Virus record (IMG/VR): IMGVR_UViG_3300010883_000001
Coordinates: 32,001-96,000 of that record
Origin: a virus
Reading direction: 5' to 3' (one strand)
DNA: 64,000 bases
Shown here: piece after piece, positions 31,980 through 63,690 of the stretch
Position numbering within the stretch: the first letter of the stretch is position 1
Layout: each line of letters opens with the position of its first letter
Position numbers and translations under genes: made by a program
The notes under the pieces: model-generated
The model's database searches: none
Told to the model about the DNA's origin: nothing
What the model saw: only the letters and a program-made list of their open reading frames with translations

Positions 31980-32565
31980 GATATCACCCCTCTTAAAAGA
32001 ATATGAATTAAAGAAAAGTCCTATTATAGTACGGGTGAATAAGTTTGATGAAGAAAATGCAAAAGCATTTCATAACCAGGTTGCTGCTGCTCATAATACG
32101 GGTCAAAAAATAATTCCAGTTGTTATTGATTCATATGGAGGCCAGGTATATAGTTTAATGGCAATGATTAGCGCAATACAATATTCTGAGATTCCTATCG
32201 CAACAATTATTGAAGGAAAGGCAATGAGTTGTGGTGCCATTCTTTTTACATTCGGTGAGCAGGGTTTAAGATTCATAGATCCGAACGCGACTGTCATGAT
32301 TCACGATGTTTCTTCTATGGACTTCGGAAAAGTAGAAGAATTAAAAGCTGGCGCCGAAGAAGCTGATCGTTTAAACACCAAGATTTATGGTATGATGGCA
32401 AGGAATTGTGGTAAGAAAGATGATTATTTTATGAAGATTGTTGATAAGAAAAAGCACGCCGACTGGTTTCTTGATGCAGCTGCGGCAAAAAAGCATGGCC
32501 TTGCAAATCACATTAGGGTGCCTAAGATGCATATATCAATAGGTGTAGATATCGATTTTGAGTAA
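31963..32565 (+). CDS. clpP: ClpP-like protease
   Basis: IDSYGG.VY, G.AMSCG (Ser), MIHD (His), DWFLDA..AK..GL. Confidence 0.85.
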   Translation: MKWTTEISPLLKEYELKKSPIIVRVNKFDEENAKAFHNQVAAAHNTGQKIIPVVIDSYGGQVYSLMAMISAIQYSEIPIATIIEGKAMSCGAILFTFGEQGLRFIDPNATVMIHDVSSMDFGKVEELKAGAEEADRLNTKIYGMMARNCGKKDDYFMKIVDKKKHADWFLDAAAAKKHGLANHIRVPKMHISIGVDIDFE

Positions 32566-47118: not shown

Positions 47119-47904
47119 ATGCCAGAAGGACCGGAAGTAAAGTTGTGTGGTGAGCGTTTAGCTTCAAATATTTCAGGTCAAACACTTAAATATATAGAGA
47201 TAATTTCAGGAAGATATTCTAAAAAGACACCTGGCGGAATTGAATTATTTGGAAAAGAATTGCCTACAACGGTTGTAGGTCCTGGTGTTCATGGGAAATT
47301 TATATATTGGATTATGAAAAATAATTATTTTCTATATAATACCCTGGGGTTAACCGGTGCATGGTCTTTGGAACAAGGTCCTTATTCTAGGGTTAAATTT
47401 TCATTTGAGAATCTAGATATTTTTTTTGATGATAAGAGAAATTTTGGCACTCTAAAGTTTGTTAAAGGAAAAGGGAATCTTTTATCAAAATTACAATCTT
47501 TAGGGCCAGATATGCTATCAGGGGACGTTGAAATATCTCTTTTTATTGATAGGCTAAGAGAGAAGAGCTCATGGGAAATTACAAAAGCATTAATGAACCA
47601 ATCCGTGGTTGCTGGGATTGGGAATTATATAAAATCGGAGTCACTATGGAAGACAAAAATTAATCCACACTCTAGGGTTTGTGATTTAGATAACGATACT
47701 TTAGCAGATCTATGCGTTAATATTAGAGATATAATGAGTGATAGCTATAAATCTCAAAAAGAAGGTGACAACTCGTTTAAATTATCGGTATATTCTAGGA
47801 AGAATGATCCTCATGATAATGAGATTATAAAGGAAAAAACAGAGGATGGTAGAACAACATACTGGTGTCCATCCGTACAACATAAAGGGACGATAAATGA
47901 ATAG
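47119..47904 (+). CDS. Fpg/Nei family DNA glycosylase/AP lyase
   Basis: N-terminal MPEGPEV, HGK, D.RNFG, LGPD, LMNQSVVAGIGNYIKSESL (H2TH), GRTTYWCP.VQ. Confidence 0.92.
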   Translation: MPEGPEVKLCGERLASNISGQTLKYIEIISGRYSKKTPGGIELFGKELPTTVVGPGVHGKFIYWIMKNNYFLYNTLGLTGAWSLEQGPYSRVKFSFENLDIFFDDKRNFGTLKFVKGKGNLLSKLQSLGPDMLSGDVEISLFIDRLREKSSWEITKALMNQSVVAGIGNYIKSESLWKTKINPHSRVCDLDNDTLADLCVNIRDIMSDSYKSQKEGDNSFKLSVYSRKNDPHDNEIIKEKTEDGRTTYWCPSVQHKGTINE

Positions 47905-48112: not shown

Positions 48113-48494
48113 TAAAAAAAAGGAGGATATGCTAATCAGCATATTCAGACTACGGGAAGAATTTATGCTAAGGATTAATGAGAAAATACCTGGTGTATAT
48201 CCCCCTTGGCCAGTCGTATTATCAGACAAGGCATCACAACAATCATTAAGAGAATCTGCACTTAAGGGTGTGGAGGAAATGTTTGAAGCATTACAACACT
48301 TAAAAAACTGGAAACCACATAGGGTAACAGAAATAAAAGAATTTAATAGAGAAGAGTTTCTTGAGGAGACTGTCGACGCATTTAATTATTTCTTTTCTTT
48401 GCTTGTTATGATGGGTGTTACACCTGAAGAGTTTTTTAATGCATATGTTAAGAAAGATACTACGATTCATAGAAGGCTAGAAGTAGGTTATTAA
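48105..48494 (+). CDS. All-alpha NTP pyrophosphatase (dimeric dUTPase/T4 dCTPase-like)
   Basis: EEMFEAL...NWKPH....EEFLEETVDAFNYF, an E..E / E..D metal motif with a WK motif. Confidence 0.75.
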   Translation: MGDKKKEDMLISIFRLREEFMLRINEKIPGVYPPWPVVLSDKASQQSLRESALKGVEEMFEALQHLKNWKPHRVTEIKEFNREEFLEETVDAFNYFFSLLVMMGVTPEEFFNAYVKKDTTIHRRLEVGY

Positions 48495-49516
48495 TGAATA
48501 TTATCGTGACCGGTGCTGCAGGTTTTATAGGGCAAAACCTTACTAAGTGTCTATTAGATTCAGGACATAAGGTTATTGGGATCGATAATTTCTCTACAGG
48601 CGATAAAAACGTTTTTAAAGAATTCTCTTCAGAATATAAGAGCAGTTTTTTACCAATGCCTTTTGACGTAACACGAGAAGATAGTTGGAGAACCATGCTG
48701 ACTGTTGTACACAGGTTTTTTCGGGGCCAAAAGGACATATCAATATATCATCTTGCATGTCCAGCGTCTCCTCCAGCATATCAAAAATATCCTCTTCGTA
48801 CATTGGATACTTCATACTTGGGTACTAGAAACTGTTTAGAGTTTGCTGCATCTGTAAATGCAAAATTTTTATTTGCTTCTACATCGGAAGTTTACGGAAA
48901 CCCGTCTTGTAATCCGCAGTCGGAAGAATATTACGGTGATGTAAATACCGTTGGCCCCAGGGCTTGTTACGATGAAGGAAAAAGGGTCGCTGAGACTCTA
49001 TGTTATGAGTATAATAAGTGTATGGGAACTGATGTGACGATTGTTAGAATATTCAACACGTATGGTCCTGGAATGAAAGCTGATGACGGCAGAGTTGTTA
49101 GCAACTTTATAAATCAGGCAATCACAGGTAAGGAATTAACGATATATGGTGATGGCTCACAGACTCGAAGTTTTTGTTTTGTATCTGATATGGTTGATGG
49201 ATTGATTTTAGCTATGGGATCTGAGTATTTTGGGCCGATTAATTTAGGGAACCCAAATGAGATTACTGTTTCCAAGTTAACAAATATAGTATTAGAAAAA
49301 TGTAATGCACGAAATGCTATTAATTATTACCCATTACCTCAGGACGATCCATGCATCAGGAGACCCAACATAAATAAAGCTAAGTGGTTATTGGGGTGGG
49401 TACCCAAAGTTAGTCTAGATGAAGGTCTAGATAGGACGATACAATACTTTAGAGGTCTTTTACGTGTAGAACCTCAAGAACCATCATATAATTTAAAAAT
49501 TGGTTATGAAAAATGA
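48494..49516 (+). CDS. uxs: UDP-glucuronate decarboxylase (UDP-xylose synthase)
   Basis: GAAGFIG, YHLACPASPPAYQ, ASTSEVYG.P...PQSEEYYG.VN.VGPRACYDEGKRVAETL, RIFNTYGP.M..DDGRVVSNF, YGDGSQTRSFCFVSD. Confidence 0.9.
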   Translation: MNIIVTGAAGFIGQNLTKCLLDSGHKVIGIDNFSTGDKNVFKEFSSEYKSSFLPMPFDVTREDSWRTMLTVVHRFFRGQKDISIYHLACPASPPAYQKYPLRTLDTSYLGTRNCLEFAASVNAKFLFASTSEVYGNPSCNPQSEEYYGDVNTVGPRACYDEGKRVAETLCYEYNKCMGTDVTIVRIFNTYGPGMKADDGRVVSNFINQAITGKELTIYGDGSQTRSFCFVSDMVDGLILAMGSEYFGPINLGNPNEITVSKLTNIVLEKCNARNAINYYPLPQDDPCIRRPNINKAKWLLGWVPKVSLDEGLDRTIQYFRGLLRVEPQEPSYNLKIGYEK

Positions 49517-52500
49517 AAAAAACACCCTCAAGATTCGTAGGTCTTCATGCACATTCTGGATTTTCTACATTTGATGGATTAGGATACCCTCAAGAACATA
49601 TTGATTATGTAAAATCAAATGGAATGGACTGTTGGGCACTTACTGACCATGGTCACATGAATGGTTTTGCACATGCTTATTTACATGCTGAAAAATTAAA
49701 AAAGCTTGGTGAGAATTTTAAATTTATTCCCGGGTGTGAAATGTATGTTCATCCGGATTTAGATGTATGGAGTCTAGACTACAAGCTAGCCCGGGCGGCA
49801 AAGCGAGGTGATCATGAGTCGATCACAAAACTTAGACAGCAAAGGGAGTCCATAGTAACCCCTATTCTTGCAGTAACCGATCGCGATGATGAGATTATAG
49901 ATGTTGATATAAATGAAGGAGGTATGACTGTAGAGAATGAGGAGGAGACTAAGTCTGCAAAATTTTATGATCCCGTTAAACGCCGGCATCATTTAGTTGT
50001 ACTACCTAGAACTAGTGAGGGTTTAAAACGTTTATTTTCATTGGTCTCCAAAGGTTATCTTGAGGGATTTTATAGATTTCCGCGTGTAGATTATAAGATG
50101 TTAAAAGAGGCCGCTAAAGGTGGTCATTTAATGCTTAGTACGGCATGCCTAGGAGGCCCCGTCGCATATGAAGTATTCAGGCATTTACAAGAAGTTTCAT
50201 TTAATAATCTTAATGCTTCTCTTTTAGATGATAGATCATTAATGGAGAAGACAATCCTTGGTGTTGGAAATGCATATGGATCACTGTGTGACGCAGTAGG
50301 GCGTGAGAACGTTATGCTTGAGTTACAGTTCAATAAACTCCCAGCTCAACATTTGGTGAATAGAGCTATACTTGAGTATTCTAGAAGAAACAATTTATCA
50401 GATCAATTAATAGTAACTTGCGACTCGCACTATGCAAATCCAGAACATTGGAAAGAGAGAGAATTATATAAGAAGTTAGGATGGTTAAATTATCGTGATT
50501 ATGATCCTTCTTCGTTACCACAAAGTCGCGACGATTTAGAGTGTGAATTATATCCGAAAAACGAAACACAGGTCTGGGATTCATATACAAATACATCTTC
50601 TGGGTATGATTTTTATAATGATGAAGAGATATGTAGCGCTATTGAGAGAACGCATGATATAGCACACGAAATGATAGGCGATATCACAGCCGATAAAAAA
50701 ATGAAGCTGCCGTCATATATAGTACCTCAAGGCACTGATGAAAACACGGCACTTCTAGAAGCTTGTAAAAAAGGATTAATAGAGAAGGGCTTACATGCTA
50801 ACAATGAATATATAGACCGCTTAAAGCTAGAGCTCTCTGTAATACGCAGTAAGGATTTTTCTAGATATTTTTTGACGATGAAGTCAATTCTTGATATTGC
50901 AAGAGAACGCATGTTGATAGGACCGGGTCGAGGATCCGCAGCTGGTAGTCTGGTTGCATATGTACTTGGAATAACAAACGTTGATCCTATAGAATATGGA
51001 TTATTGTTTGAAAGATTTTTATCTGTCCATCGTGAGGGCGCACCAGACATTGATACTGACGTAGGCGATAGGGATCTTCTGATTGATCTACTCAAGGCAA
51101 ATTTTGGTGATCAGAATGTTGTTCCTATTTCAAATTATAACACTTTTAAATTGAAATCATTAGTAAAAGATATATCACGTTTTTATGGTATACCCTTTGA
51201 CGAAGTAAATAAGGCACTGGCACCGGTTGAGAATGACGTAAAAAAAGTAGTCTTTACAAAGGGTACCGACAAAAACCTTTTCGTGTTATTGTATGAAGAT
51301 GCCATTGCACACTCGGCATCATTTCGAAGTTTTATTGAAAAGTATCCTGAGGTAGCTGAACCAATCGAAATTTTATTTAAGCAAAATAAGTCCTTGGGTC
51401 GACATGCTGGCGGAGTAATAATCAGTGAAAATATTCCGGAGCAGATGCCCTTGATACTCGCAAGGGGTGAGCTACAGACCCCTTGGGTCGAAGGGATGCA
51501 TTATAAACATCTGGAAGAGTTTGGGTGGATTAAATTTGATCTTCTTGGATTAGAAACCCTACGAATAATCCAACGTTGTATAGAGCTAGTTTTGAAGAGG
51601 CATGAGGGAAATGAGAACCCGACTTTTGTTGATGTGAAGAAATGGTTTGACCAAAACATGGATCCGAAAGTCATAGATTTTAATGATGAAGAAGTGTTTC
51701 GAAACATATATCATCAAGGAAAATGGGCTGGAATATTTCAGGCTACGCAACGAGGCGCACAGGCATTTTTTAAGAAAGGAAAGCCTTTGAGTATTATTGA
51801 TGTTGCTACGCTTACATCAATTTATCGCCCAGGTCCGTTAAGTGCTAATGTGCATAAGATATATTTGGGATCAAAGGACAATCCAGAAGATATAGATTAT
51901 CAACATGATCTTATTAAACAGGTTCTGGAACCGACATATGGTGCGATAATCTTTCAAGAGCAAGTTATGGAGTTATGCAACGTTGTAGCCGGTTTCCCTC
52001 AGGAAGACTGTGATAAGGTTCGTAGAACAATCATGAAGAGATCTGCGTCTAAGGCAGATGCTATGAAAGCCGAGGCTGAAGCTTTAAAGAACAGATTTGT
52101 TGAGGGTGCTGTCACAAATGGCGTGGCACAGGATGTTGCTAGCGAATTATATGAGAAAATCTTATTTTTCTCCGGATATGGTTTTAATAAATCTCATGCC
52201 GTATCTTACGCAGTTGATTCTTACTATTGCGCATGGTTGATGCACTACTATGAGGAGGAATGGCTGTGTGCTTATCTTGAGGCTATGTCAAGTACTCCGG
52301 ATAAGTTGGCAAAAGCATCTAGCGAGATTAAAAAGCTGGGATATAAGACGGTACCTCTAGACATAAATTATGCTGAAAAGACCTGGACAATATTAGACGG
52401 GAAGAAATTTATGCCATCATTCTTATCATGCAAAGGTATAGGACTAGCCGCAATCGACGAGATTATGAAAAATAGACCGTATAGCTCAGTTGATGATTTA

Positions 52501-53112
52501 CTATGGGATGAATCAGGTAAGTGGCGACATTCAAAGTTTAATAAGCGTGCGTTAGGCTCACTTATTCGTGTTTGTGCATTTGGGTCCATGGGCTTAGTTG
52601 GCGAAAGGAAGGCATTTTCTTCATATAAGCAGATGCACGAAATACTAATAGATAAAAACCAAGATATAAAAAAGTCAACAAGGAAAGATCCATGGAGAGG
52701 TAAAAAAGCAATGACTGAATTGCTGGTTGAATCAGATACTTCAAGCGAATGGACATCTTATGAGCTAGCAAAGAATAGTATTGAGCTGTTGGGATCATTT
52801 AGTTCGAAATTACTAGTGGATGACGAGTTACAAAAAGAGCTACAAAAAAGAGGCATTCACACAATTGATGAATATCACTCAAAAGACCTATATTGGTTTA
52901 TTGTAAAGAAGGCAATCCCAAAGTTGACAAAGAATAAAAAGCCGTATCTACTATTGACAATATCTGGTACTGAAGGATCGGAAAGTCGGATGTTCTACTG
53001 GGGATGGAATGGAAACACAGATATATCAGAGTTTTCAGTTTGTGTGGCAGAAATTGACAGGAGCGATTTTGGATTTTCAACTAGATCCGGAAAGATAAAG
53101 GTAATTAGATAA
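49513..53112 (+). CDS. dnaE: DNA polymerase III alpha subunit (family C)
   Basis: PHP domain HAH..FS.FDG, TDHG, GCE, DSHY. GPGRGSAAGSLVAY.LGIT, FERFL, PDIDTD, HAGG, KFDLLGL, YRPGP, YGFNKSHA. Confidence 0.95.
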   Translation: MKKTPSRFVGLHAHSGFSTFDGLGYPQEHIDYVKSNGMDCWALTDHGHMNGFAHAYLHAEKLKKLGENFKFIPGCEMYVHPDLDVWSLDYKLARAAKRGDHESITKLRQQRESIVTPILAVTDRDDEIIDVDINEGGMTVENEEETKSAKFYDPVKRRHHLVVLPRTSEGLKRLFSLVSKGYLEGFYRFPRVDYKMLKEAAKGGHLMLSTACLGGPVAYEVFRHLQEVSFNNLNASLLDDRSLMEKTILGVGNAYGSLCDAVGRENVMLELQFNKLPAQHLVNRAILEYSRRNNLSDQLIVTCDSHYANPEHWKERELYKKLGWLNYRDYDPSSLPQSRDDLECELYPKNETQVWDSYTNTSSGYDFYNDEEICSAIERTHDIAHEMIGDITADKKMKLPSYIVPQGTDENTALLEACKKGLIEKGLHANNEYIDRLKLELSVIRSKDFSRYFLTMKSILDIARERMLIGPGRGSAAGSLVAYVLGITNVDPIEYGLLFERFLSVHREGAPDIDTDVGDRDLLIDLLKANFGDQNVVPISNYNTFKLKSLVKDISRFYGIPFDEVNKALAPVENDVKKVVFTKGTDKNLFVLLYEDAIAHSASFRSFIEKYPEVAEPIEILFKQNKSLGRHAGGVIISENIPEQMPLILARGELQTPWVEGMHYKHLEEFGWIKFDLLGLETLRIIQRCIELVLKRHEGNENPTFVDVKKWFDQNMDPKVIDFNDEEVFRNIYHQGKWAGIFQATQRGAQAFFKKGKPLSIIDVATLTSIYRPGPLSANVHKIYLGSKDNPEDIDYQHDLIKQVLEPTYGAIIFQEQVMELCNVVAGFPQEDCDKVRRTIMKRSASKADAMKAEAEALKNRFVEGAVTNGVAQDVASELYEKILFFSGYGFNKSHAVSYAVDSYYCAWLMHYYEEEWLCAYLEAMSSTPDKLAKASSEIKKLGYKTVPLDINYAEKTWTILDGKKFMPSFLSCKGIGLAAIDEIMKNRPYSSVDDLLWDESGKWRHSKFNKRALGSLIRVCAFGSMGLVGERKAFSSYKQMHEILIDKNQDIKKSTRKDPWRGKKAMTELLVESDTSSEWTSYELAKNSIELLGSFSSKLLVDDELQKELQKRGIHTIDEYHSKDLYWFIVKKAIPKLTKNKKPYLLLTISGTEGSESRMFYWGWNGNTDISEFSVCVAEIDRSDFGFSTRSGKIKVIR

Positions 53113-54200
53113 TGCGGGTCTTAGTAGTCGGAGGAGGTATATTTGGTACCACGATAGCATCAGAACTATCAGAGCATGGAAATGATGTAACATTAATTGA
53201 AAAAGAAAATACCTTGATGACGGCAGCCAGCAGGGTAAATCATAATCGTGTTCATTTTGGCTATCACTATCCTCGTAGTCCAGAGACGGCAAGACAATGT
53301 CTAGACAGCATTCCCAGTTTTTTAATGCATTATGGTGATTCTGTAGTATCGGATTTCCCTAACTATTATACGATTGCTAATGAAGGTAGCTTCGTAACCC
53401 CGGAACAGTTTATTGATTTTTGTAAAGAGGTTAAAATTGATTTCTACGAACAATATCCACCTAAGCATCTTCTTAGAAGAGACAAGCTAGCAGCTAGCTT
53501 TAGGGTAAGAGAGCCTATTTTTAGTACCAGTCGATTAGCACAGCTAGTTAACGATCGATTAGATCGAGCAGGTGTGAACGTTCTTGTAAGGACACAAATT
53601 ACTAAGGCTAAGAAAAATCCTGGAGGTGGATACTCTGTAATGATAAATGGTGCTAGGTGTATATTTGATAAGGTTATTAATGCAACATACGCCGGCCTGA
53701 ATACTGTAAATAAGGTGTTTAATGTCCGGCCTCATGAACTACGGTTTGAGGAGACAGTAGTACCAGTATTCAAGTTCAGTCACACACCTGTTGGGCTGAC
53801 TATAATGGATGGTCCCTATTGTACTATAATGCCTCATGGAAATATTTCGGAAGAGTTTTTACTTTGGCATGTTGATGGCGGAGTTTTATCTCATGCTACT
53901 GACATTAAAAATATTCGTAGGGTTGTGTCATCTGATGAAGAGATCGCGGCTCGTATAATTGAGATGTCTGCTGAGTTTATGCCTTTTATGGAGGGCGTGG
54001 AATTTCTTTCATTGATGAAAACAGTAAAGACTGTCTATGAGAATAAGTATGATGCAAGAATGTCTGAGGTTCATACGTACGACGACAGTCCGGACTTTAT
54101 CTCAGTATTATCTGGGAAGATAATGTGTGCACCTCAGATTTCATATCAGGTTCGAGAATTAGTTAGGGGTAAGAAGTATCACAGGAGTATTTTGGTATGA
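53112..54200 (+). CDS. FAD-dependent oxidoreductase (DAO-like, type found in sugar biosynthesis clusters)
   Basis: VLVVGGGIFG...VTLIEK, AS..NHNRVH.GYHYPRS, INATYA, MDGP. Confidence 0.8.
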   Translation: MRVLVVGGGIFGTTIASELSEHGNDVTLIEKENTLMTAASRVNHNRVHFGYHYPRSPETARQCLDSIPSFLMHYGDSVVSDFPNYYTIANEGSFVTPEQFIDFCKEVKIDFYEQYPPKHLLRRDKLAASFRVREPIFSTSRLAQLVNDRLDRAGVNVLVRTQITKAKKNPGGGYSVMINGARCIFDKVINATYAGLNTVNKVFNVRPHELRFEETVVPVFKFSHTPVGLTIMDGPYCTIMPHGNISEEFLLWHVDGGVLSHATDIKNIRRVVSSDEEIAARIIEMSAEFMPFMEGVEFLSLMKTVKTVYENKYDARMSEVHTYDDSPDFISVLSGKIMCAPQISYQVRELVRGKKYHRSILV

Positions 54201-54862
54201 TAAAGAATATACTAATTTTTGGTGCATCTGGTTATGTGGCACGTCATTTTAGCGAAAAATATTTTAATCATTATAATATTATTCACTTTGCTAGAGAAGA
54301 TTTTGATTTTTTGAGACCTGATTTTGAAAAATTGGTTGAAAATTTAATCGAGAAACTTCAACATTTACGGCAACCACGACATGGCGGCGTAGATGGGATT
54401 GTGTTTTTGCAAGGAATTAACCCCTCATTTGGAGTAAGTGACATAGATGATAATCAGTTTCATGATATGTTAAGTATAAATTTATCAGTACCACTTCAGG
54501 TTATTAGGCAAATTAAAGACTGGATTAATAAAAGTGCATCAATCACATTTATATCATCCATTGCAAGAAAGAAAGGGAGTTATGATCCGAGCTATGCTTC
54601 TGCAAAAGCGGGGCTGGTTGGACTTCAGCAGGCTTTGTCAAATCATTTTTCTGATATTCGTTTTAATACGATATCACTCGGGTTGGTTGGGGGATCCCCT
54701 GTTCACGAGGGAATGACAGATGATTTTGCCCTTAAACATCTAGATGCCATGGGAGGAAAATTGGTAAAAGTTGATGATGTTTGTAAAGCTATAGGTTTTT
54801 TGATAGAATGTGATAGTATTTCTCGCGCGATTATTCCAATTGATAGAGGGTTTAAGTTATGA
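54197..54862 (+). CDS. Short-chain dehydrogenase/reductase
   Basis: GASGYVA, INL, ISS, YASAK (YxxxK). Confidence 0.85.
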   Translation: MIKNILIFGASGYVARHFSEKYFNHYNIIHFAREDFDFLRPDFEKLVENLIEKLQHLRQPRHGGVDGIVFLQGINPSFGVSDIDDNQFHDMLSINLSVPLQVIRQIKDWINKSASITFISSIARKKGSYDPSYASAKAGLVGLQQALSNHFSDIRFNTISLGLVGGSPVHEGMTDDFALKHLDAMGGKLVKVDDVCKAIGFLIECDSISRAIIPIDRGFKL

Positions 54863-55389
54863 GTGATCAAAAGATCATAATCTTTGATGGTCCGGACGGG
54901 TGTGGAAAGACAAATATCGCAGCTGCGTTGTCAAGACTTCTAGATATTCCCGTTTTTAAGAATGAATTTGAATGGGATCATTTTAATCTTGGCTCAAGTA
55001 ATGATTATTTTATTAAAGCAATAGAATATCAGCACCCCTACGTGTTATCTTTCTTAAAGCAAACCAGACATTCAGCAATATTTGATAGGGCTCATCCTTC
55101 TGAGTTTGCATACTCCCGCGTATTTGAGAGAACAACAAGTTGGAGGGCTTTAAAGATGTGTGATGATATGAGTGCTGAAATGTCTGTAAAAATAATTATT
55201 CCCTATCGCACAAATTATGAAAATGTCGATGATGAGTTTGGGGTAAATCCCATAAAGCTAGTAGAGATTGAATCCGAGTATAGAGCATTTGCTAAGTGGA
55301 CCAAGTGTGATGTAATGTGGTTAAATGTTGATGATGAAGATTTAGATAGGGAAATTAAGGAAATCGTTGATTTTTTGGAGATGGTATAA
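54859..55389 (+). CDS. dNMP kinase (thymidylate-kinase-like)
   Basis: IIFDGPDGCGKT P-loop, IFDRAHPSEFAY. Confidence 0.8.
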   Translation: MSDQKIIIFDGPDGCGKTNIAAALSRLLDIPVFKNEFEWDHFNLGSSNDYFIKAIEYQHPYVLSFLKQTRHSAIFDRAHPSEFAYSRVFERTTSWRALKMCDDMSAEMSVKIIIPYRTNYENVDDEFGVNPIKLVEIESEYRAFAKWTKCDVMWLNVDDEDLDREIKEIVDFLEMV

Positions 55390-56420
55390 TGAGGGTACTG
55401 TTTAGTTATTGGGGATTTTGTGAGAGCTTTGAAGACTGTAACGAACCGAATACACCTGATGGATCTAGATTCACTAGACCGATGTTTGTTAATGCACTTA
55501 CGATTGCAGGGCACCAGGTAACATCTCTACAAAAAAGAAGAGAGAAAAATGAGTACCCCGGGATTACATATGATCCAGTTGGTTTACCTGATGGTGATAT
55601 TTTATTTATTGAGTGGCGCTGGAAGACGTGGAAAAATTTTGGTGATACTAAATTTGAGAATGATTATGACAGGCAAATCGAATTATTGCAACACTATCAT
55701 GGAGAGGTACCCGTCGTAATATGGGACTGTGATATGAAATTGACGTCTGAGGATGAGAATAGGTGGCCTGAGGCTATCATTGCTGACCCTACAATGGACC
55801 CTAAGCAACTTACCAGAAAGAGGGCTAGGTTACCATTTTCATCAGATCTGAAATTTTTAGTTGAGCCGTATGAAGACCCGGTTAGGTATGGGTATATCGG
55901 GAACAATTACGAGCGAGATGAGATGTTTGAAAAATATTATAATTGTCCCGCAAAATCTCTTAGGCCGGAAGGAATTCAAACATCAGTTTTTGGAAACTGG
56001 CTTCTGCGATCTCCGGAGAGAATGTCTCCTGAACATGTAACGAAGAAATTTCGTAATATTGCGTTTATTGATAGGGTTGGGTTTACTGAATCCATGCAGC
56101 AGTTGAGAAAATTCATATGTACTACACATATCACAAAGCCAGAGTATGCAAAGAGGGGATTTGTCTCGCCTAGGTATCTTGAGAATATAGCAACATGTAC
56201 TCCTTCATTGGTACCTTGTGAGTTTATGATGAATAATATTTTAGGAAATAATTGGATGGCATCAAGCTCAGGCAGTGTTGTCAAGGCTGTAAGATATTTG
56301 AGATGTCTTTTACCAGAAGATCGTGCTGCGGTTGTTGATGAGCAAAGGTATAATTTGAGAAATAACCTGAATGTTGATGTTAAGCAAACAGTTGAGTTTT
56401 TAGAGGGTTTGATAAAATGA
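55389..56420 (+). CDS. GT-B glycosyltransferase resembling T4 DNA beta-glucosyltransferase
   Basis: C-terminal YIGN, VFGNW, RVGF..S...L......HI..PEY...GFVSPRYLE.......LVP.EF parallels the UDP-binding domain of T4 BGT as recalled (NY.DNFITLRVWE.......LI..EF). Confidence 0.6.
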   Translation: MRVLFSYWGFCESFEDCNEPNTPDGSRFTRPMFVNALTIAGHQVTSLQKRREKNEYPGITYDPVGLPDGDILFIEWRWKTWKNFGDTKFENDYDRQIELLQHYHGEVPVVIWDCDMKLTSEDENRWPEAIIADPTMDPKQLTRKRARLPFSSDLKFLVEPYEDPVRYGYIGNNYERDEMFEKYYNCPAKSLRPEGIQTSVFGNWLLRSPERMSPEHVTKKFRNIAFIDRVGFTESMQQLRKFICTTHITKPEYAKRGFVSPRYLENIATCTPSLVPCEFMMNNILGNNWMASSSGSVVKAVRYLRCLLPEDRAAVVDEQRYNLRNNLNVDVKQTVEFLEGLIK

Positions 56421-57412
56421 AAAAATCAGTATTAATTACTGGAGGTTGTGGCTTTATAGGGGGCAATCTTGTAAAAGCACTATACAATAAGGGATGGGTT
56501 GTTGATGTTGTTGATCACAGTGTAGAGATAGATCCGGATATATTTTCCCATGATGGAAAAAATGTGACGAGAATTTGTCCGGCTGCGTTAATGCCAGCGT
56601 TACAAAAAAGGGATAGAGAAGACAAAATATTAGTAATAACGTCTGATTTTACTGACGAAAATATTTTGAAGAAAATTTCTAATAAAAAATATGATATAGT
56701 TTTTCATATGGCCGCTGAACCCCGAGTGGGGTTTAGTGTTAAAGATCCTGTCTTTACAACTGAAGAGAACTTGTTTAAGACAGTTGTGTTGTTTAAGGCC
56801 TGTGCTGATGCTGGTACAAAGGTTGTATTTTCCTCCTCATCAGCAGTTTACGGAAATGCTGATCAACTACCCACCAGCGAAGATTGCAAAAAGAAACCAG
56901 CATCCCCATATGCATTGCAGAAGTTACATGCGGAGGATTACGCAAGGTTATTTAGCGACTTGTATGACTTAGATGTTGTATGTCTGAGGTATTTTAACGT
57001 ATTTGGCCCCGGGGCTCTAGGCAGTTCTCCTTACGCAACGGCAGTTGCTGCATGGTGCCAGGCAATATATGATGGAAACACATTACGAAGTGATGGTGAC
57101 GGAGAGCAAACGCGGGATCTTGTTTATGTGGATGATATTGTAAGAATTAATATTGCCCTAGGGAAAAGTGCTAAAAACTTTAAAGGCGATTGTTATAATG
57201 TTTGTACCGGTAAGTCATATAGCAATAATTACGTATTATCTAGGTTTAGGGAAAAATTTTCTAATTTAGAGATCGTTTCTGCTCCTGCTCGTATTGGAGA
57301 CGTTAAACATACTTTAGGTGATACCAGTAAGGCAACAAATGATCTTGGATTTGAGGTTGTACATGATTTCGATGATGCTTTAAAGGCAACATGGGCATGG
57401 TGGGGATTTTAG
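56417..57412 (+). CDS. NAD-dependent NDP-sugar epimerase (GalE/WbpP-like extended SDR)
   Basis: TGGCGFIG, FHMAA, SSSSAVYG, SPYALQK, LRYFNVFGP, GDGEQTRD..YVDD, R.GDVKHT.GD. Confidence 0.9.
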   Translation: MKKSVLITGGCGFIGGNLVKALYNKGWVVDVVDHSVEIDPDIFSHDGKNVTRICPAALMPALQKRDREDKILVITSDFTDENILKKISNKKYDIVFHMAAEPRVGFSVKDPVFTTEENLFKTVVLFKACADAGTKVVFSSSSAVYGNADQLPTSEDCKKKPASPYALQKLHAEDYARLFSDLYDLDVVCLRYFNVFGPGALGSSPYATAVAAWCQAIYDGNTLRSDGDGEQTRDLVYVDDIVRINIALGKSAKNFKGDCYNVCTGKSYSNNYVLSRFREKFSNLEIVSAPARIGDVKHTLGDTSKATNDLGFEVVHDFDDALKATWAWWGF

Positions 57413-57422
57413 GGGAAAAAAA

Positions 57423-58412
57423 TTGCATATTGTCTCTCATTCGTTTAACGACTGCTATAATCAGTTGGCGAAATATTTGTTAACAAGCGGGGAATATGAT
57501 GTATCCCCTAGAGGCCAGAGGGTTAGAGAATCTTTATGCGTAAGTTTTAAGATTGAAAACCCTAGGGATAGACTAATCTATAATCCGGCGAGAAAATTTT
57601 CTTTCACATATGTTATAGCGGAGATGCTTTGGTATATTTCTGGAAATAATAAAACGTCGTGGATATCTCATTATTCTAAATTTTGGAATAAAATATCTGA
57701 TGATGGTAAGACGGCCAACTCTGCATATGGTGCTAGGATATTTGAGAAAAATGAAAGAATCGCAGGATCCCAATTTATTCAGTGGGATTTTATAAAGGAG
57801 GAGTTAAGAAAAGATCCGGATTCTAGAAGGGCAATAATTCATATCCGCGTTCCGGAGGATTCTATAAAGGCAAAGCTTGATGTCCCCTGTACAATATCAA
57901 TACAATACTTTATAAGATCTGAAAAATTACATTGCATAGTCAATATGAGATCTTCTGACTTAATTTTAGGGATAAGCTACGATATTCCTGCGTTCACATT
58001 TATGCAGGAGATGATGGCAAATGAATTGGGGGTTGATGTAGGCTCTTATATGCATGTCAGTAATTCATTGCATGTATACGAGAGACATTTTGATATGCTA
58101 GAAAAGATAGCATCAACAGAAAATATTAATAAGTCTTATTCATTAAGTTCAGGAGCTAGAAAACTTAAATTACCACAGGGTGATCTACCCATATATAGTT
58201 TAATGCAGTTTGAGGACGCTATGCGAAAAACCACCCATAATAAAACCGCATTAGATTTATTAGATTCATCGATTTGTTTATTCGATGATTATTGGAATGA
58301 TTGGCTACGAGCGCTAGCAGCGCATAGGGTTCTTAAAAATGGTGATAAACATCTTCACGATAATATATTATATAGGTGTGATCGCTTGAGGGGGTGTTAT
58401 GAGAGATCCTGA
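57423..58412 (+). CDS. Thymidylate-synthase-fold enzyme with cytosine-type Asp (probable dCMP hydroxymethylase/hydroxylase/methylase)
   Basis: YGAR, D.DSRRA, PC (C156), MRSSD...GISYD (D187 at the position of TS Asn177 / T4 gp42 Asp179), SLHVY. Confidence 0.8.
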   Translation: MHIVSHSFNDCYNQLAKYLLTSGEYDVSPRGQRVRESLCVSFKIENPRDRLIYNPARKFSFTYVIAEMLWYISGNNKTSWISHYSKFWNKISDDGKTANSAYGARIFEKNERIAGSQFIQWDFIKEELRKDPDSRRAIIHIRVPEDSIKAKLDVPCTISIQYFIRSEKLHCIVNMRSSDLILGISYDIPAFTFMQEMMANELGVDVGSYMHVSNSLHVYERHFDMLEKIASTENINKSYSLSSGARKLKLPQGDLPIYSLMQFEDAMRKTTHNKTALDLLDSSICLFDDYWNDWLRALAAHRVLKNGDKHLHDNILYRCDRLRGCYERS

Positions 58413-58992
58413 GTTTATAATTTTTACTGGACCAATGTTCGGTTCAAAAACTACTAGAATGCTAGCATGTGTAGACAGGTATAGATACCAGCATAAACTT
58501 ATTGCAGTATTTAAACCAAAGATAGATGATAGATACGAGACTGATAAAATTAAAACACATTCAGGTTTGTCTATACAGGCGCACTGCGTCGAGTCAGGTT
58601 ACGAGATTGCTGATATTATAACTAAAATTGAGCTAGCGTCACTTAAGAGAGTTGACGTGATTGCCGTTGATGAAGCTTTTATGATTGAAGGATGCTCGTC
58701 GACGCTAATTCAATTGTTTAAAACAGGATACACAATCGTAATTGCGTCGATACAATTATCGGCCACCGGCGAGCCATTTAATGAAATTAAAGATATTCTG
58801 CCATGGGGGACAAGAGTTGAGGTTTGTCCAGCAGTATGTTCTAGGACTGGCGAAGATGCATATTATACATTTAGAAAAGTTGAATGTTTGGATAGCATTA
58901 TGATTGGAGGTTCTGATATGTATGAGGCCAGGTGTTGGTCAAGTCATCCTGGACTGAATTCCTTGGAGAAATTAAATGATAGAGCCATCTAG
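58399..58992 (+). CDS. tdk: Thymidine kinase
   Basis: TGPMFGSKT, FKP.ID.RY, THSG, VDEAF, IGG..MYEARC. Confidence 0.88.
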   Translation: MRDPEFIIFTGPMFGSKTTRMLACVDRYRYQHKLIAVFKPKIDDRYETDKIKTHSGLSIQAHCVESGYEIADIITKIELASLKRVDVIAVDEAFMIEGCSSTLIQLFKTGYTIVIASIQLSATGEPFNEIKDILPWGTRVEVCPAVCSRTGEDAYYTFRKVECLDSIMIGGSDMYEARCWSSHPGLNSLEKLNDRAI

Positions 58993-59830
58993 CGTTGATT
59001 GCGTAATATATCATGCTGACTGTACTGACGGCTTTGGGGCAGCCTACGCAGCATGGAAACTTTTAGGAAACAAGGCAGATTATTATGCGTGTAAGCATGG
59101 CTCAGTCCCACCAGATGTATCGGGTAAAAGAGTTGTAATTCTAGATTTTTCTTTTAATAATGAGATTACAAAAGCAATGATTGACACAGCGGATGGTTTG
59201 ATAGTCATTGATCATCATAAGTCGGCCATGGTAGAATTGCATGATATTACGGATGCTATATTCAATATGAGTAAATCTGGAGCCATGCTAGCATGGGAAT
59301 TTTTTCATCCGGGAAAAGAGCCACCAAAGTTTATTTCGTACATAGAGGATCGTGATCTGTGGAAGTGGGAGTTACCATATTCAAAAGAGTTCGCTGCAGC
59401 TTTTGATATGGTTCCTTTCGAGTTTGAAGAGTTTGAGAAGTTTGAAGATGACTCTGTTTTTGATGATGCTGTAAAACGAGGAAGTTACATACTGGCGTAT
59501 TCAAAAACGGTAGTTAAAAAAGTCTCTGAGAAGGCATCACCAAGAAGATTAAACGGAAAGAGCATATTGGTCGTAAATGCTTCACATTGGATGTCGGAAA
59601 TAGGCGCCAGGCTTTCTCCCGATTGTGATGTTGCAATGATCTGGTATTATGATCATATTGATAAAATGATAAAGGTTAGCTTAAGATCTTTTCATGACAC
59701 CGTTGATGTCTCCGAGGTCGCAAAGAAATTTGGCGGAGGTGGGCATAAAAAGGCTGCTGGTTTTATACTTCCTGGAGATGCTGTCGTGGATGATATTTTT
59801 GACGATGAGGTTAAGAATGAAGAAGTTTAG
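58976..59830 (+). CDS. DHH/DHHA1 phosphoesterase
   Basis: YH.DC.DG, LDFS, IDHH, D.DLW, SLRS, GGGGH..AAG. Confidence 0.88.
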   Translation: MIEPSSVDCVIYHADCTDGFGAAYAAWKLLGNKADYYACKHGSVPPDVSGKRVVILDFSFNNEITKAMIDTADGLIVIDHHKSAMVELHDITDAIFNMSKSGAMLAWEFFHPGKEPPKFISYIEDRDLWKWELPYSKEFAAAFDMVPFEFEEFEKFEDDSVFDDAVKRGSYILAYSKTVVKKVSEKASPRRLNGKSILVVNASHWMSEIGARLSPDCDVAMIWYYDHIDKMIKVSLRSFHDTVDVSEVAKKFGGGGHKKAAGFILPGDAVVDDIFDDEVKNEEV

Positions 59831-60239
59831 GCCTGGATGGGATGCGATTTGGCTTAAGTTTGCGCATCTAATATCTGAGAGAAGTTATGATGATCGGTAC
59901 AAGGTAGGTGCCATTGTAGTTTCGATCGACAATACACAGGTTCTTGCAGTGGGATATAATGGAAATTATTCTGGTGGTCCAAATGAAGCAGACTCAGCTG
60001 AACCAGGCAAATCAGGATTTATTCATGCTGAGATTAATGCATTACTTAAGTGCGACTATAATTATCACAAAGTTAAAAAACTATATGTTACACTATCACC
60101 GTGCATGATGTGTGCTAAGGCCATTATTAATGCCGGAATCTCAGAGGTGATTTATGATGATGAGTATAGAGATACGGCCGGAATTCAGCTTATGAAGGAT
60201 ACAGGAATTGTCGTTAGGAGAGTAAACAATTATTCTTGA
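59817..60239 (+). CDS. dCMP deaminase
   Basis: VGA.VV, GYNG, HAEINA, TLSPC..CAKAIINAGI. Likely start is ATG 59817 (GAGG SD) rather than 59694. Confidence 0.9.
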   Translation: MKKFRPGWDAIWLKFAHLISERSYDDRYKVGAIVVSIDNTQVLAVGYNGNYSGGPNEADSAEPGKSGFIHAEINALLKCDYNYHKVKKLYVTLSPCMMCAKAIINAGISEVIYDDEYRDTAGIQLMKDTGIVVRRVNNYS

Positions 60240-62656: not shown

Positions 62657-62998
62657 ATGAAAATCTCAGAGATAGATCTTACTAGAAAAAACAAGGTAAT
62701 TCTGCGTAAAGGATTAAAGATCGTACATTCACCTACCGGGTTGGAATATACTGTACTTGATGTATTTAAAGATTCATCAGGAAAAGTAAAAATTAAGCTA
62801 GCTCCCCCAGAACAACCTAGGGTAGAGCCGATCACATCTACTACGGTGATGCAAGAAGTTGAGCTAGTAAATAATACCCAAGACGATCAGACAATACACA
62901 CCACGCCTGAAGATACTGCCGAAGAAGTCATAGATCTGGAGGACGAGGACGTCCTTGTTTTAGATCAAGGAGAATTGAAAGATTATGAGGTTAGATAA
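62657..62998 (+). CDS. Hypothetical protein
   Basis: 113 aa. GLKIVH..TGLEYTV. GAGG SD. Confidence 0.6.
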   Translation: MKISEIDLTRKNKVILRKGLKIVHSPTGLEYTVLDVFKDSSGKVKIKLAPPEQPRVEPITSTTVMQEVELVNNTQDDQTIHTTPEDTAEEVIDLEDEDVLVLDQGELKDYEVR

Positions 62999-63690
62999 TG
63001 TCTGATGTTATAAAAAGAGAAGTTGTCGCAGCGATAAGGGCCGTTATTAATAAAGACGATGACGTAAGTCAAGTCTCTGAGTCATATGTAGTTCAACCTA
63101 GGAAATATGCTTTATCAACAGAGAAGATTGGCGAAAAAACAAAGGGTATGATGATAAAGAGATTTGAGGAAGCTGTTGCAAACCTAAACACAGTTTCAGC
63201 GAAGCTTGACACAGCTAATAAAGAAGCTGCTGGAGAGTTTCACTCTGATTTTCGCTCATTAAAATTTGATGAGTCATCGTTACTATCTAGATCTTTTTTG
63301 ACAGCTATGACCCTGGAGAACATAAGCGACTTAGATTCTAAAATAACGATGGATTCTCTTCCTTTTTTACGTTTAGATAGGGATTTTCAATCTTTTGACA
63401 ATTGGCAAAGAGATTTTATTGCGTGTGGGAAATGTATAACGGATGGGTTTGTTGCATGCGGATTAAACGTTTATTTAAAGAAATACACAAACATAATCTG
63501 CGCCGGCCCAACATTCTCAGTTCCAGTTGGGTTTATGCCTATACTGGTTTTGGCAATTGATCCAATAGTAATATCAAGAAATTTTTCTGCAGATAATTCG
63601 CAGTTTATTGCATCAATGATGAAAGAGATAGATTGGGATAAGGTCTCTGATAGAATTAAGAAGTCAGAAAAGTTTTTAAAGATTTTGTGA
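62998..63690 (+). CDS. Fe/Mn superoxide dismutase-fold protein lacking metal ligands
   Basis: RLDRDFQSFDNWQRDF.A, G.V, PILVL...., F....M..IDW..V..R match the SOD C-domain layout. The DxWEHAY motif is replaced by AIDPIVI. Confidence 0.6.
   Translation: MSDVIKREVVAAIRAVINKDDDVSQVSESYVVQPRKYALSTEKIGEKTKGMMIKRFEEAVANLNTVSAKLDTANKEAAGEFHSDFRSLKFDESSLLSRSFLTAMTLENISDLDSKITMDSLPFLRLDRDFQSFDNWQRDFIACGKCITDGFVACGLNVYLKKYTNIICAGPTFSVPVGFMPILVLAIDPIVISRNFSADNSQFIASMMKEIDWDKVSDRIKKSEKFLKIL

Follow-up and report, generated by a model that had tools for sequence, protein, structure and literature searches.

Gene content of the locus

The window, a 64,000-nt stretch covering positions 32,001 to 96,000 of IMG/VR record IMGVR_UViG_3300010883_000001, contains a run of plus-strand genes in which a glycosyltransferase (GT) gene, encoding the protein P0001, is embedded among genes of nucleotide and sugar-nucleotide metabolism. 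The genes of the run are as follows.

47119..47904, + strand: Fpg/Nei-family DNA glycosylase (Pfam H2TH, Fapy_DNA_glyco and C-terminal domain); heads the gene run and is also present in locus L001
48105..48494, + strand: small all-alpha NTP pyrophosphatase-like protein, 129 aa; weakly assigned as a candidate dCTPase/dUTPase
48494..49516, + strand: UDP-glucuronate decarboxylase (UDP-xylose synthase, UXS), 340 aa; possible pentose donor supply
49513..53112, + strand: DnaE-type DNA polymerase III alpha, 1199 aa (Pfam PHP, DNA_pol3_alpha, finger and HHH_6); embedded in the cluster
53112..54200, + strand: FAD-dependent oxidoreductase, DAO-like, 362 aa (Pfam DAO, 7.7e-21)
54197..54862, + strand: classical short-chain dehydrogenase/reductase, 221 aa (Pfam adh_short_C2, 9.8e-15); 1 of 54 loci
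54859..55389, + strand: YorR-like (TMPK/dNK-class) P-loop deoxynucleotide kinase, 176 aa; predicted to phosphorylate the modified dCMP
55389..56420, + strand: P0001, GT-B glycosyltransferase gene, 343 aa, ATG start; remote homologue of T4 DNA beta-glucosyltransferase (BGT)
56417..57412, + strand: NDP-sugar 4-epimerase-type extended SDR, 331 aa (Pfam Epimerase, 1.7e-47); NAD-dependent
57423..58412, + strand: thymidylate-synthase (TS) homologue (Pfam Thymidylat_synt, 3.7e-34); active site MRSSD...LGISYD
58399..58992, + strand: thymidine kinase (Pfam TK, 9.3e-33)
58976..59830, + strand: DHH/DHHA1 phosphoesterase (PHROG 4771, 8.3e-76; Pfam DHH and DHHA1)
59694..60239, + strand: dCMP deaminase (Pfam dCMP_cyt_deam_1, 4e-19, match from residue 49); the ORF overlaps the DHH gene, and translation probably begins downstream of 59694

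The GT ORF is genuine, and is translationally coupled to the kinase and epimerase genes. The kinase/GT junction is a TAATG overlap with a GGAG 8 nt upstream, the GT/epimerase junction is an ATGA overlap, and the opposite strand of 55389-56420 contains many stops. An earlier reading of this DNA (the sequence-only reading) had described a 343-aa protein lying between a dNMP kinase and the epimerase/TS genes, and this is borne out: the gene order is as listed above, and the quoted motifs SYWGF, TPDG.R, FIEWRW, WDCD, FGNW and PEYAKRGFVSPRYLE...LVPCEF are all present in the translation. Its description as unannotated-looking was also fair, in that P0001 itself has no match in Pfam, PHROGs or NCBIfam, and all of its homologues, a family of about 200-240 metagenomic phage proteins, are unnamed or “hypothetical”. 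Searches by tblastn of 50,697 phage genomes with P0001, P0164 and P0156 gave no match, and thus no cultured representative; the YorR-like kinase likewise gave none in this set.

For comparison of gene content we used 54 IMG/VR loci, collected with the GT alignment (A1). The NTP pyrophosphatase-like protein falls just below the Pfam cutoff for dUTPase_2 (E 1.2e-4; 22.8 bits vs 22.9), matches PRA-PH at 0.005, and has a 61% identical orthologue in L001, while L010 carries a dUTPase_2 gene. The UXS assignment is based on a phmmer search of the PDB, where human UXS1 (E 3.5e-94, 318 bits) is well separated from the next class (125 bits); an orthologue of 50% identity occurs in L004, and UXS is found in only four of the 54 loci. 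The FAD-dependent oxidoreductase was not found in the other loci of the set. We considered it as a Glf mutase and rejected this, as it has only a Rossmann motif in common with the GLF protein of L004 and is DAO-like by Pfam and NCBIfam. The short-chain dehydrogenase/reductase is possibly involved in sugar tailoring. A kinase profile (A4) matches YorR best in the PDB (2axp/3kb2, E 1.6e-16), followed by thymidylate and deoxyguanosine kinases, and residues K17, D76 and R77 of the kinase are invariant. For the epimerase, GalE is the best NCBIfam match, although below cutoff, and the PDB matches include WbpP, WbgU and UDP-Glc 4-epimerases; orthologues of 46-49% identity occur in L001, L004 and L007.

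The TS homologue is relevant to the acceptor base. In an alignment with T4 gp42 and RB69 gp48 its active site is cytosine-type, and all 50 of the 50 GT-linked TS homologues have D169 and an Asp at the N177 position (MRS[SN]D...G...D), as does T4 gp42. The D169N signature of 5hodCMP synthases is absent from all 50; the window sequence reads MRSSD and that of RB69 gp48 reads MRSQN. We predict from these residues that the protein is a dCMP 5-hydroxymethylase, the substrate base being predicted well, and infer the hydroxymethyl product. The protein also has a C-terminal extension of ~90 aa that is absent from T4 gp42. A ThyX is encoded elsewhere in the genome.

Relationship to T4 BGT

The relationship of the GT family to T4 BGT is seen only with a deep profile. 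A phmmer search of the PDB with P0001 returned only chlorophyll a/b-binding proteins (E 0.004, over a 48-residue stretch), which we judged spurious, and a shallow 40-sequence family profile returned only TRAF6, which was dismissed as noise. When an HMM of 118 diverse members (A3) was searched against 177,635 PDB sequences, T4 BGT was the sole significant match (E 1.3e-13; next E 0.05), and the match spans the whole C-terminal domain. Comparison of the family with BGT by hhalign gave values of 96.5% (local) and 98% (global).

In these alignments R176, Y253, R262 and E265 of P0001 correspond to BGT R195, Y261, R269 and E272, and the R262/E265 correspondence was already present in the shallow profile alignment. 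The UDP-binding residues of BGT (S189, R191, R195, Y261, R269 and E272) are thus retained at four of six positions, with 95-100% conservation of those four in the family; of the other two, S189 is replaced by N172 and R191 lies inside a BGT-only insertion. The parallel that the sequence-only reading had drawn between the C-terminal domain and the UDP-binding segment of BGT, including the R..E pair, is therefore above chance.

Domain libraries describe the family poorly. The atlas neighbour clusters of the GT family are 92-100% PF09198, the BGT model, but PF09198 itself does not match P0001 or 40 close members (E<=1), nor the 118 diverse members (E<=0.01), and even at E<=10 it has no match anywhere in the 145-kb genome. 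Weak matches to PF13524 occur in 18 of the 40 and 65 of the 118 relatives (best 6e-9), with none for P0001; this model cannot separate GT4-like enzymes from the BGT family because some PF09198 clusters carry PF13524 too. PF00534 matches one of the 118 relatives and nothing in the genome. The E-x7-E motif of retaining GT4 enzymes is absent from P0001, which reads E265-x12-E278 (YLENIATCTPSLVPCEF), a spacing class that is the same as that of BGT E272...EEF. As judged by sequence profile, and not by fold alone, T4 BGT is specifically the closest solved relative. Since the family does not match the BGT Pfam model, we regard it as a sister family of T4 BGT in its own right, one that has had no name so far.

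Predicted structure and conserved residues

The structure model of P0001 (pLDDT 94.1, pTM 0.90) has an N-terminal acceptor domain (residues ~1-160) and a C-terminal donor domain (~160-343). The GT-B fold expected by the sequence-only reading was recovered: the model has two Rossmann domains, and its whole length is superposable on BGT (305 aligned residues, Foldseek and VIA). By structure scores, BGT is tied with GT4 enzymes for small molecules and lipids, such as PimA, BshA and TarM.

The N-terminal domain had been described as unlike BGT, and this holds only in part. No local sequence match between it and BGT reaches statistical significance, but the structural alignment runs through it, and the global hhalign alignment places FIEWRW (E75-W-R77-W78) on the catalytic FTDIR...W of BGT (D100-I-R102...W109), with low per-column confidence. 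In this alignment E75, which ends the strand 71-75, corresponds to the catalytic base Asp100, and R77 to R102. The further suggestion that the aromatic-rich N-terminal domain indicates a different donor does not stand, as this domain sets the acceptor and not the donor.

Residues R77 and R262 are 100% conserved in the family, and D113, D115, Q96, Y169, G171, Y174, R176, G202, W204 and E265 are at least 95% conserved (D113 in 112 of 118 members, D115 in 116). E75 is present in 70 of the 118 (59% of the broad family). The near-universal residues R77, D113, D115, Q96 and D70, together with E75 in the close clade, likely form the acceptor/catalytic site. The family has a median pI of 6.0, and the N-terminal domain of P0001 has a charge of -7, vs a pI of 9.05 for BGT. 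We set acidity aside as an argument against DNA binding, as the phage proteome has a median pI of 5.79 and DnaE a pI of 6.15. Distant members of the family are fused to a methyltransferase, a carbamoyltransferase C-terminus or HTH_58, which give no clear functional lead.

Conservation of the gene neighbourhood

Uncultured marine phages with genomes of roughly 150-290 kb commonly carry a member of the family. Among the 54 loci, the GT co-occurs with DnaE in 52, the YorR-like kinase in 51, the TS homologue in 50, dCMP deaminase in 44, the epimerase in 42 and a Glf-type mutase in 21. The kinase adjoins the GT in either gene order. The kinase-GT-TS triad is also present in a PolB phage at 31% identity, and the linkage to TS homologue and kinase (~50 of 54 loci) is retained at identities of 25-54% and with either of two polymerase types. 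One divergent member (L009) lies beside two C5 DNA methyltransferases, with no TET/JBP dioxygenase in its 8.8-kb contig. Overall, the DNA/nucleobase context of the GT is very strong.

Proposed function

The sequence-only reading had called P0001 a probable DNA glycosyltransferase, and the GT-B model, the BGT-specific profile homology and the nucleobase gene context in ~50 of 54 loci all support this. The explanation that we favour, and consider probable, is that P0001 is a GT-B enzyme of a BGT sister family that is predicted to glycosylate 5-hydroxymethylcytosine (hmC) in replicated phage DNA. As suggested by its signature residues, the TS homologue would convert dCMP to 5-hydroxymethyl-dCMP (hm-dCMP), which the YorR-like kinase would convert to the diphosphate and host NDK to the triphosphate. 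The co-encoded DnaE would then incorporate the modified nucleotide, with dTMP presumably supplied by ThyX and dCMP deaminase, and the candidate NTP pyrophosphatase may deplete dCTP. After replication, a UDP-sugar would be held in the C-terminal domain through R176, Y253, R262 and E265 (as assigned by the BGT alignment), and the sugar would be moved to the 5-CH2OH of an hmC presented to the N-terminal domain, as homology and context suggest. From the homology to BGT, the transfer is predicted to be inverting and beta-type. The modification would shield phage DNA against attack by restriction and CRISPR nucleases.

The main alternative concerns the order of the steps. In a pre-replicative route, a possibility that the sequence-only reading had raised, the GT would glycosylate hm-dCMP, the YorR-like kinase would phosphorylate the product, and DnaE would incorporate the bulky glycosyl-dNTP. 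The near-constant presence of kinase and GT together (51 of 54 loci, in either order, and with overlapping genes here) is consistent with such a route, as is DnaE within the same cluster in 52 loci, and the aromatic-rich N-terminal domain, with its conserved Arg and Lys, could hold a nucleotide phosphate. The same route is favoured by a homologous kinase beside the base-proximal GT in RB69, and by the work of Lee et al. (2026; PMC13326640) on RB69 and DLP3, whose experiments do not distinguish mononucleotide from DNA as the acceptor of the first sugar and showed no activity of single GTs on 5hoC-DNA. However, phosphorylation of hm-dCMP requires a kinase in any case, and the 145-kb fragment yielded no second dNMP kinase, so that the kinase-GT adjacency needs no special explanation. 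In addition, BGT, the closest homologue, works on duplex DNA, the divergent member beside DNA C5-methyltransferases suggests a DNA-level substrate, and we know of no polymerase that uses glycosylated dCTP in vivo. On balance, we consider a pre-replicative route unlikely here. Its fuller version, with the GT acting on hm-dCMP, a kinase specialised for the glycosylated nucleotide and a DnaE co-evolved for sugar-bearing dCTP, is distinctly unlikely, although if true it would be the first pathway that builds a glycosylated base before direct incorporation, and it would probably yield an unreported DNA sugar, such as L-arabinosyl- or xylosyl-hmC made via UDP-xylose synthase.

A different cytosine acceptor, namely 5-hydroxycytosine as in RB69, DLP3 and RL38J1, or some other product of the long TS homologue, is quite improbable. 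The kinase-GT-TS architecture, with a Glf mutase in relatives, does mirror the 5hoC systems, including the galactose/UDP-Galp mutase of RL38J1 (PMC13326640), and the TS extension missing from T4 gp42 might be read in the same way, but the published diagnostic of 5hodCMP synthases is lacking in all 50 linked homologues, which keep the Asp of T4 gp42.

It is highly improbable that P0001 lies among nucleotide genes incidentally and instead adds sugar to a protein of the virion, to a glycan of the host envelope or to a small molecule. In favour of this, the structural scores of GT4 enzymes for lipids, teichoic acid and small molecules lie within 1 Z unit of BGT, distant members have methyltransferase or carbamoyltransferase fusions, and other viruses use UXS and similar sugar-nucleotide enzymes to glycosylate capsids or glycans. 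Against it, BGT is the one PDB protein that the family profile matches below E 0.05, which makes the homology BGT-specific, the linkage to TS homologue and kinase persists across divergent members and both polymerase types, and no other gene of the run indicates envelope or virion glycosylation.

For the favoured reading, glycosylation of hmC in replicated DNA, the donor is probably a galacto-type sugar or a pentose rather than plain UDP-glucose, given the UDP-xylose synthase and 4-epimerase genes in the cluster. The 4-epimerase in the conserved core, the UXS here and the Glf-type mutase in 21 of 54 loci together suggest that the sugar has the galacto configuration, as Gal or L-Ara in this phage and as furanose forms in relatives. 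The identity of the sugar is uncertain, as UXS is present in so few of the loci.

Attaching sugars to cytosines is one of the main ways in which phages withstand restriction enzymes and CRISPR nucleases, and T4 BGT is a standard reagent in 5hmC mapping. Within the BGT lineage the GT family forms a branch that is distinct in sequence and that current domain libraries do not recognise, and it is paired with varied sugar-nucleotide modules (4-epimerase, UDP-xylose synthase and Glf-type mutase). A distinct and widespread family with such varied modules marks a phage pool that probably carries undescribed hmC sugars in its DNA, and could supply 5hmC labelling with DNA glycosyltransferases that accept new donors. 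The near-constant kinase-GT pairing also bears on the question, raised by the 2026 RB69/DLP3 study, of whether the first sugar is added to nucleotide or to DNA.

Comparison with known systems

T4 BGT (CAZy GT63; PF09198; PDB 1bgt, 1c3j, 1j39 and 1nzd) is similar in length to P0001 (351 vs 343 aa). GNW of the GT aligns with GNA of BGT, and LVPCEF with LIDEEF; the GT lies near a cytosine-type TS homologue, just as b-gt adjoins gene 42 in T4. The differences are considerable, with only ~13-17% identity and no PF09198 match for the GT family. R191 has no counterpart in the GT, and S189 is Asn. The N-terminal domain is not confidently alignable, the D100 equivalent is a Glu that is not universal, and the near-universal D113-x-D115 and Q96 of the GT family are absent from BGT. 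UDP-Glc is probably not the donor, and the gene comes from a marine phage with a DnaE-type polymerase and a genome of roughly 280 kb, rather than from a T-even phage. T4 AGT (GT72) is a larger (400 aa), retaining enzyme, and the search of the PDB with the 118-member HMM detected no sequence-profile relationship between it and the GT family.

A precedent for the function proposed here is given by the metavirome phage GT-B enzymes GT53, GT66 and GT94, which resemble T4 bGT and glycosylate 5hmC in DNA (Pyle et al. 2023, bioRxiv 10.1101/2023.12.21.572611); in the HMM mining of that study, ~28% of GT-B contigs were linked to thymidylate synthase homologues. Compared by description, P0001 is likewise a phage GT-B enzyme with structural resemblance to T4 bGT, but those enzymes belong to post-replicative methyltransferase/TET clusters, whereas P0001 is found with a TS homologue, a kinase and DnaE.

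In module logic the locus parallels the base-proximal GT clusters of RB69, DLP3 and RL38J1, which combine a nucleotide kinase, a GT-B enzyme, a TS homologue and phage-made UDP-sugars (Lee et al. 2026, PMC13326640), and in which a YorR/TMPK-like kinase similarly adjoins the GT. The kinase here is homologous to RB69 gp45 (hhalign 96.9%), and both have YorR as the top PDB match; the Glf mutase of RL38J1 has its counterpart in 21 of the 54 GT relatives. The GT itself is BGT-like rather than MshA/SPS-like as is RB69 gp46:47, and hhalign of alignment A1 with the two ORF halves of gp46:47 gave 0.3% and 0.1%, for templates that were single, split sequences. The sugar supply also differs, with UXS and a 4-epimerase here instead of the Ru5P-arabinose route, and the GT-linked TS homologue keeps D169, which predicts 5hmC, and not 5hoC, as the base that is glycosylated.

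Identity of the GT gene and its neighbors

The protein analyzed here (GT, 343 aa) is encoded by the ORF at 55389-56420 (+), and its translation contains every motif quoted in the sequence-only reading, which had proposed a DNA glycosyltransferase. The reverse strand of the ORF is closed. The GT start codon shares a TAATG with the stop of the preceding P-loop gene (176 aa), and a GGAG lies 8 nt upstream; the GT stop and the start of the epimerase gene that follows likewise overlap, as ATGA. The source is an IMG/VR viral contig of 145,181 bp (CheckV completeness ~52%), with 39% G+C and genes nearly all on one strand.

Table. GT and its neighbors in the window
48494-49516: predicted UDP-glucuronate decarboxylase (UXS), 340 aa
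49513-53112: DnaE-type replicative polymerase
53112-54862: DAO-like FAD enzyme and classical SDR, an overlap-coupled pair between dnaE and the kinase
55389-56420 (+): GT, preceded by the kinase and followed by a 4-epimerase-type SDR
57423-58412: thymidylate-synthase (TS) homologue, followed by TK and then a DHH phosphoesterase
59694-60239: dCMP deaminase
also neighboring GT: Fpg/Nei; an all-alpha NTP-PPase-like ORF (weak assignment)

The 3' end of the UXS gene overlaps the dnaE start, and dnaE is translationally coupled to both the UXS and FAD enzyme genes. In its listed form the dCMP deaminase ORF shares 137 nt with the DHH gene, and Pfam matches it from residue 49 onward; the true start is probably an internal codon. 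At 62998-63690, a 230-aa protein gives a weak match (E 7.5e-4) to the C-terminal domain of Fe/Mn superoxide dismutase, and a similar gene (PF02777) is carried by a 228-kb related phage (L004). In L004, two inserted genes separate the TS homologue from TK (10990-12311), one for a GIY-YIG endonuclease and the other for an IMPDH/NMO-like FMN oxidoreductase.

Relationship to T4 BGT

As a single sequence, GT has no match in Pfam, PHROG or NCBIfam, nor by tblastn in 50,697 phage genomes, and its PDB matches were judged spurious. Its relatives (~200 close homologues; 240 representatives at 50% clustering) are all metagenomic and unnamed, many of them on contigs of 100-290 kb, and 18 of 40 close members weakly match PF13524 (Glyco_trans_1_2). 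An HMM built from a diverse alignment of 118 sequences, extending down to ~21% identity, matched T4 DNA beta-glucosyltransferase (BGT; GT63, PF09198) at E 1.3e-13 among 177,635 distinct PDB sequences, with family positions 130-337 on BGT 152-349; the next best protein reached only E 0.05. By hhalign, the family scores 96.5% (local) and 98% (global) against BGT. Independently of the HMM, an ESM-Atlas feature search placed three viral clusters, 92-100% PF09198, among the nearest neighbors (scores 0.97-0.98).

Table. Corresponding C-terminal elements, GT family and T4 BGT
YVGNNYER, with R176: YGGSFRSGQRE, with R195
GNW: GNA
Y253: Y261
F258: F265
R262: R269
E265: E272
LVPCEF: LIDEEF

R262 is invariant in the 118 sequences, and R176 and E265 are conserved in at least 98%. 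The R..E pair that had been likened to BGT is borne out, and R262/E265 fall on R269/E272 already in a shallow profile; we take BGT R195 and R269 to bind the UDP phosphates and E272 the ribose. Since no family member reaches the Pfam BGT model, we regard the family as a sister of GT63 rather than a part of it.

The N-terminal domain had been called unlike BGT, which holds for sequence, there being no significant local match, but not for structure, as the domain superposes on BGT. A global profile alignment of low column confidence sets E75-W-R77...W78...K82-N83 on BGT D100-I-R102...W109...K113-N114, and on this basis FIEWRW is placed on the BGT catalytic-base motif. E75 occurs in just 70 of the 118 members, while R77 (118), Q96 (117), D115 (116), D113 (112) and D70 (110) are near-universal, which leaves E75 and the family-specific D113-x-D115 as candidates for the catalytic base.

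Conservation of the gene set

The core gene set recurs in relatives at 40-52% identity. Among 54 IMG/VR loci annotated with HMMs from neighbor genes of the window and its relatives, we found DnaE in 52, the kinase in 51, the TS homologue in 50, dCMP deaminase in 44, the 4-epimerase in 42, a UDP-galactopyranose mutase (Glf)-type gene next to GT in 21, and UXS in 4; loci lacking a partner gene are mostly truncated. The kinase adjoins GT, in either order, wherever locus maps show both. It also recurs in a PolB phage (31% identity), as dUTPase_2, UDG, a Tmk-like kinase, GT, the TS homologue and PolB, and a 32% member has as neighbors a kinase-UDG fusion and two genes for C5 DNA methyltransferases. 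DnaE lies inside the run of base-modification and sugar genes (loci L014-L067, 52/54), a placement that may reflect polymerase co-adaptation to a modified dNTP or template.

Predicted acceptor, kinase and donor

In an alignment that includes T4 gp42 and RB69 gp48, the TS homologue of the window shows MRSSD...LGISYD, with the gp42-like Asp at the ThyA-N177 position that denotes cytosine specificity. It retains Asp169, in contrast to the D169N by which 5-hydroxy-dCMP synthases are diagnosed in RB69, DLP3 and RL38J1 (PMC13326640). Because this D/D pattern is common to all 50 linked TS homologues, and dTMP synthesis falls to a ThyX encoded at another site in the genome, the predicted GT acceptor is 5-hydroxymethylcytosine. 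The TS homologue also has a conserved C-terminal extension of ~90 aa (YW.DW...LA.HR) absent from gp42 and gp48.

A 25-sequence profile of the kinase matched SPbeta YorR (2axp/3kb2; E 1.6e-16), then thymidylate and deoxyguanosine kinases. The P-loop Lys and invariant D-R motif are kept, and the protein is homologous (hhalign 96.9%) to RB69 gp45, the "nucleotide kinase" that in published arabinosyl-5hoC clusters neighbors the TS homologue and the base-proximal GT (PMC13326640). These features together identify a mononucleotide kinase, which most simply would convert hm-dCMP to its diphosphate; the 145,181-bp fragment showed no other dNMP kinase. The loci of two divergent members recurrently tie the YorR/Tmk-like kinase to a DNA glycosylase fold: in L009 (1876-2889 (-)) it forms a fusion with a UDG-superfamily domain, and in L010 (4890-6004) it directly follows one.

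The 340-aa SDR at 48494-49516 is clearly predicted to be a UDP-xylose synthase, being strikingly near human UXS1 (E 3.5e-94, 318 bits; next class 125 bits); such a route to a DNA sugar is not reported in the phage DNA-modification literature consulted. The core SDR adjoining GT is of the 4-epimerase class (WbpP, WbgU, GalE). UXS plus 4-epimerase is the classical UDP-L-arabinose route, the epimerase alone gives UDP-Gal or UDP-GalNAc, and epimerase with Glf leads to a furanose. Since the pentose counterpart of galactose is L-arabinose, we infer that a galacto-configured donor would be coherent for the family. The Glf-type gene abuts GT in L025, L030-L043, L045, L046, L049, L058, L059 and L061, which points to donors of furanosyl type (Galf or Araf) for these 21 relatives. 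The window's phage, unlike them, has instead of Glf the DAO-like FAD enzyme and SDR, a pair nearly unique to it among the 54 loci that may tailor the sugar by oxidation and reduction.

Level of action and comparison with known systems

We consider it reasonably likely that GT acts on DNA. BGT, the one protein to which it is specifically related, works on duplex DNA, one family member adjoins DNA methyltransferases, and BGT-like GT-B phage enzymes glycosylate 5hmC on DNA (Pyle et al., 10.1101/2023.12.21.572611). Action on the nucleotide we consider rather unlikely. In its favor are the near-constant pairing of kinase and GT, the DnaE embedded in the cluster, and the analogous systems of PMC13326640, whose authors state explicitly that they could not assign the first sugar transfer and did not see it on DNA. 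Acidity of the family was dropped as an argument against DNA binding, because the phage proteome is itself acidic (median pI 5.79; DnaE 6.15).

Addition of sugar to hydroxymethylated cytosine by a phage GT-B enzyme is textbook knowledge for T4. Metavirome mining has yielded thousands of GT-B contigs, and ~28% of these show linkage to a TS homologue (10.1101/2023.12.21.572611). The novelty lies in a well-defined sister family of BGT, invisible to Pfam and with no cultured member, and in the tight module that it forms with DnaE, a YorR-like kinase and a TS homologue of cytosine type in marine phages of ~150-290 kb, where the sugar-supply genes UXS, 4-epimerase and Glf would predict hmC sugars as yet undescribed.
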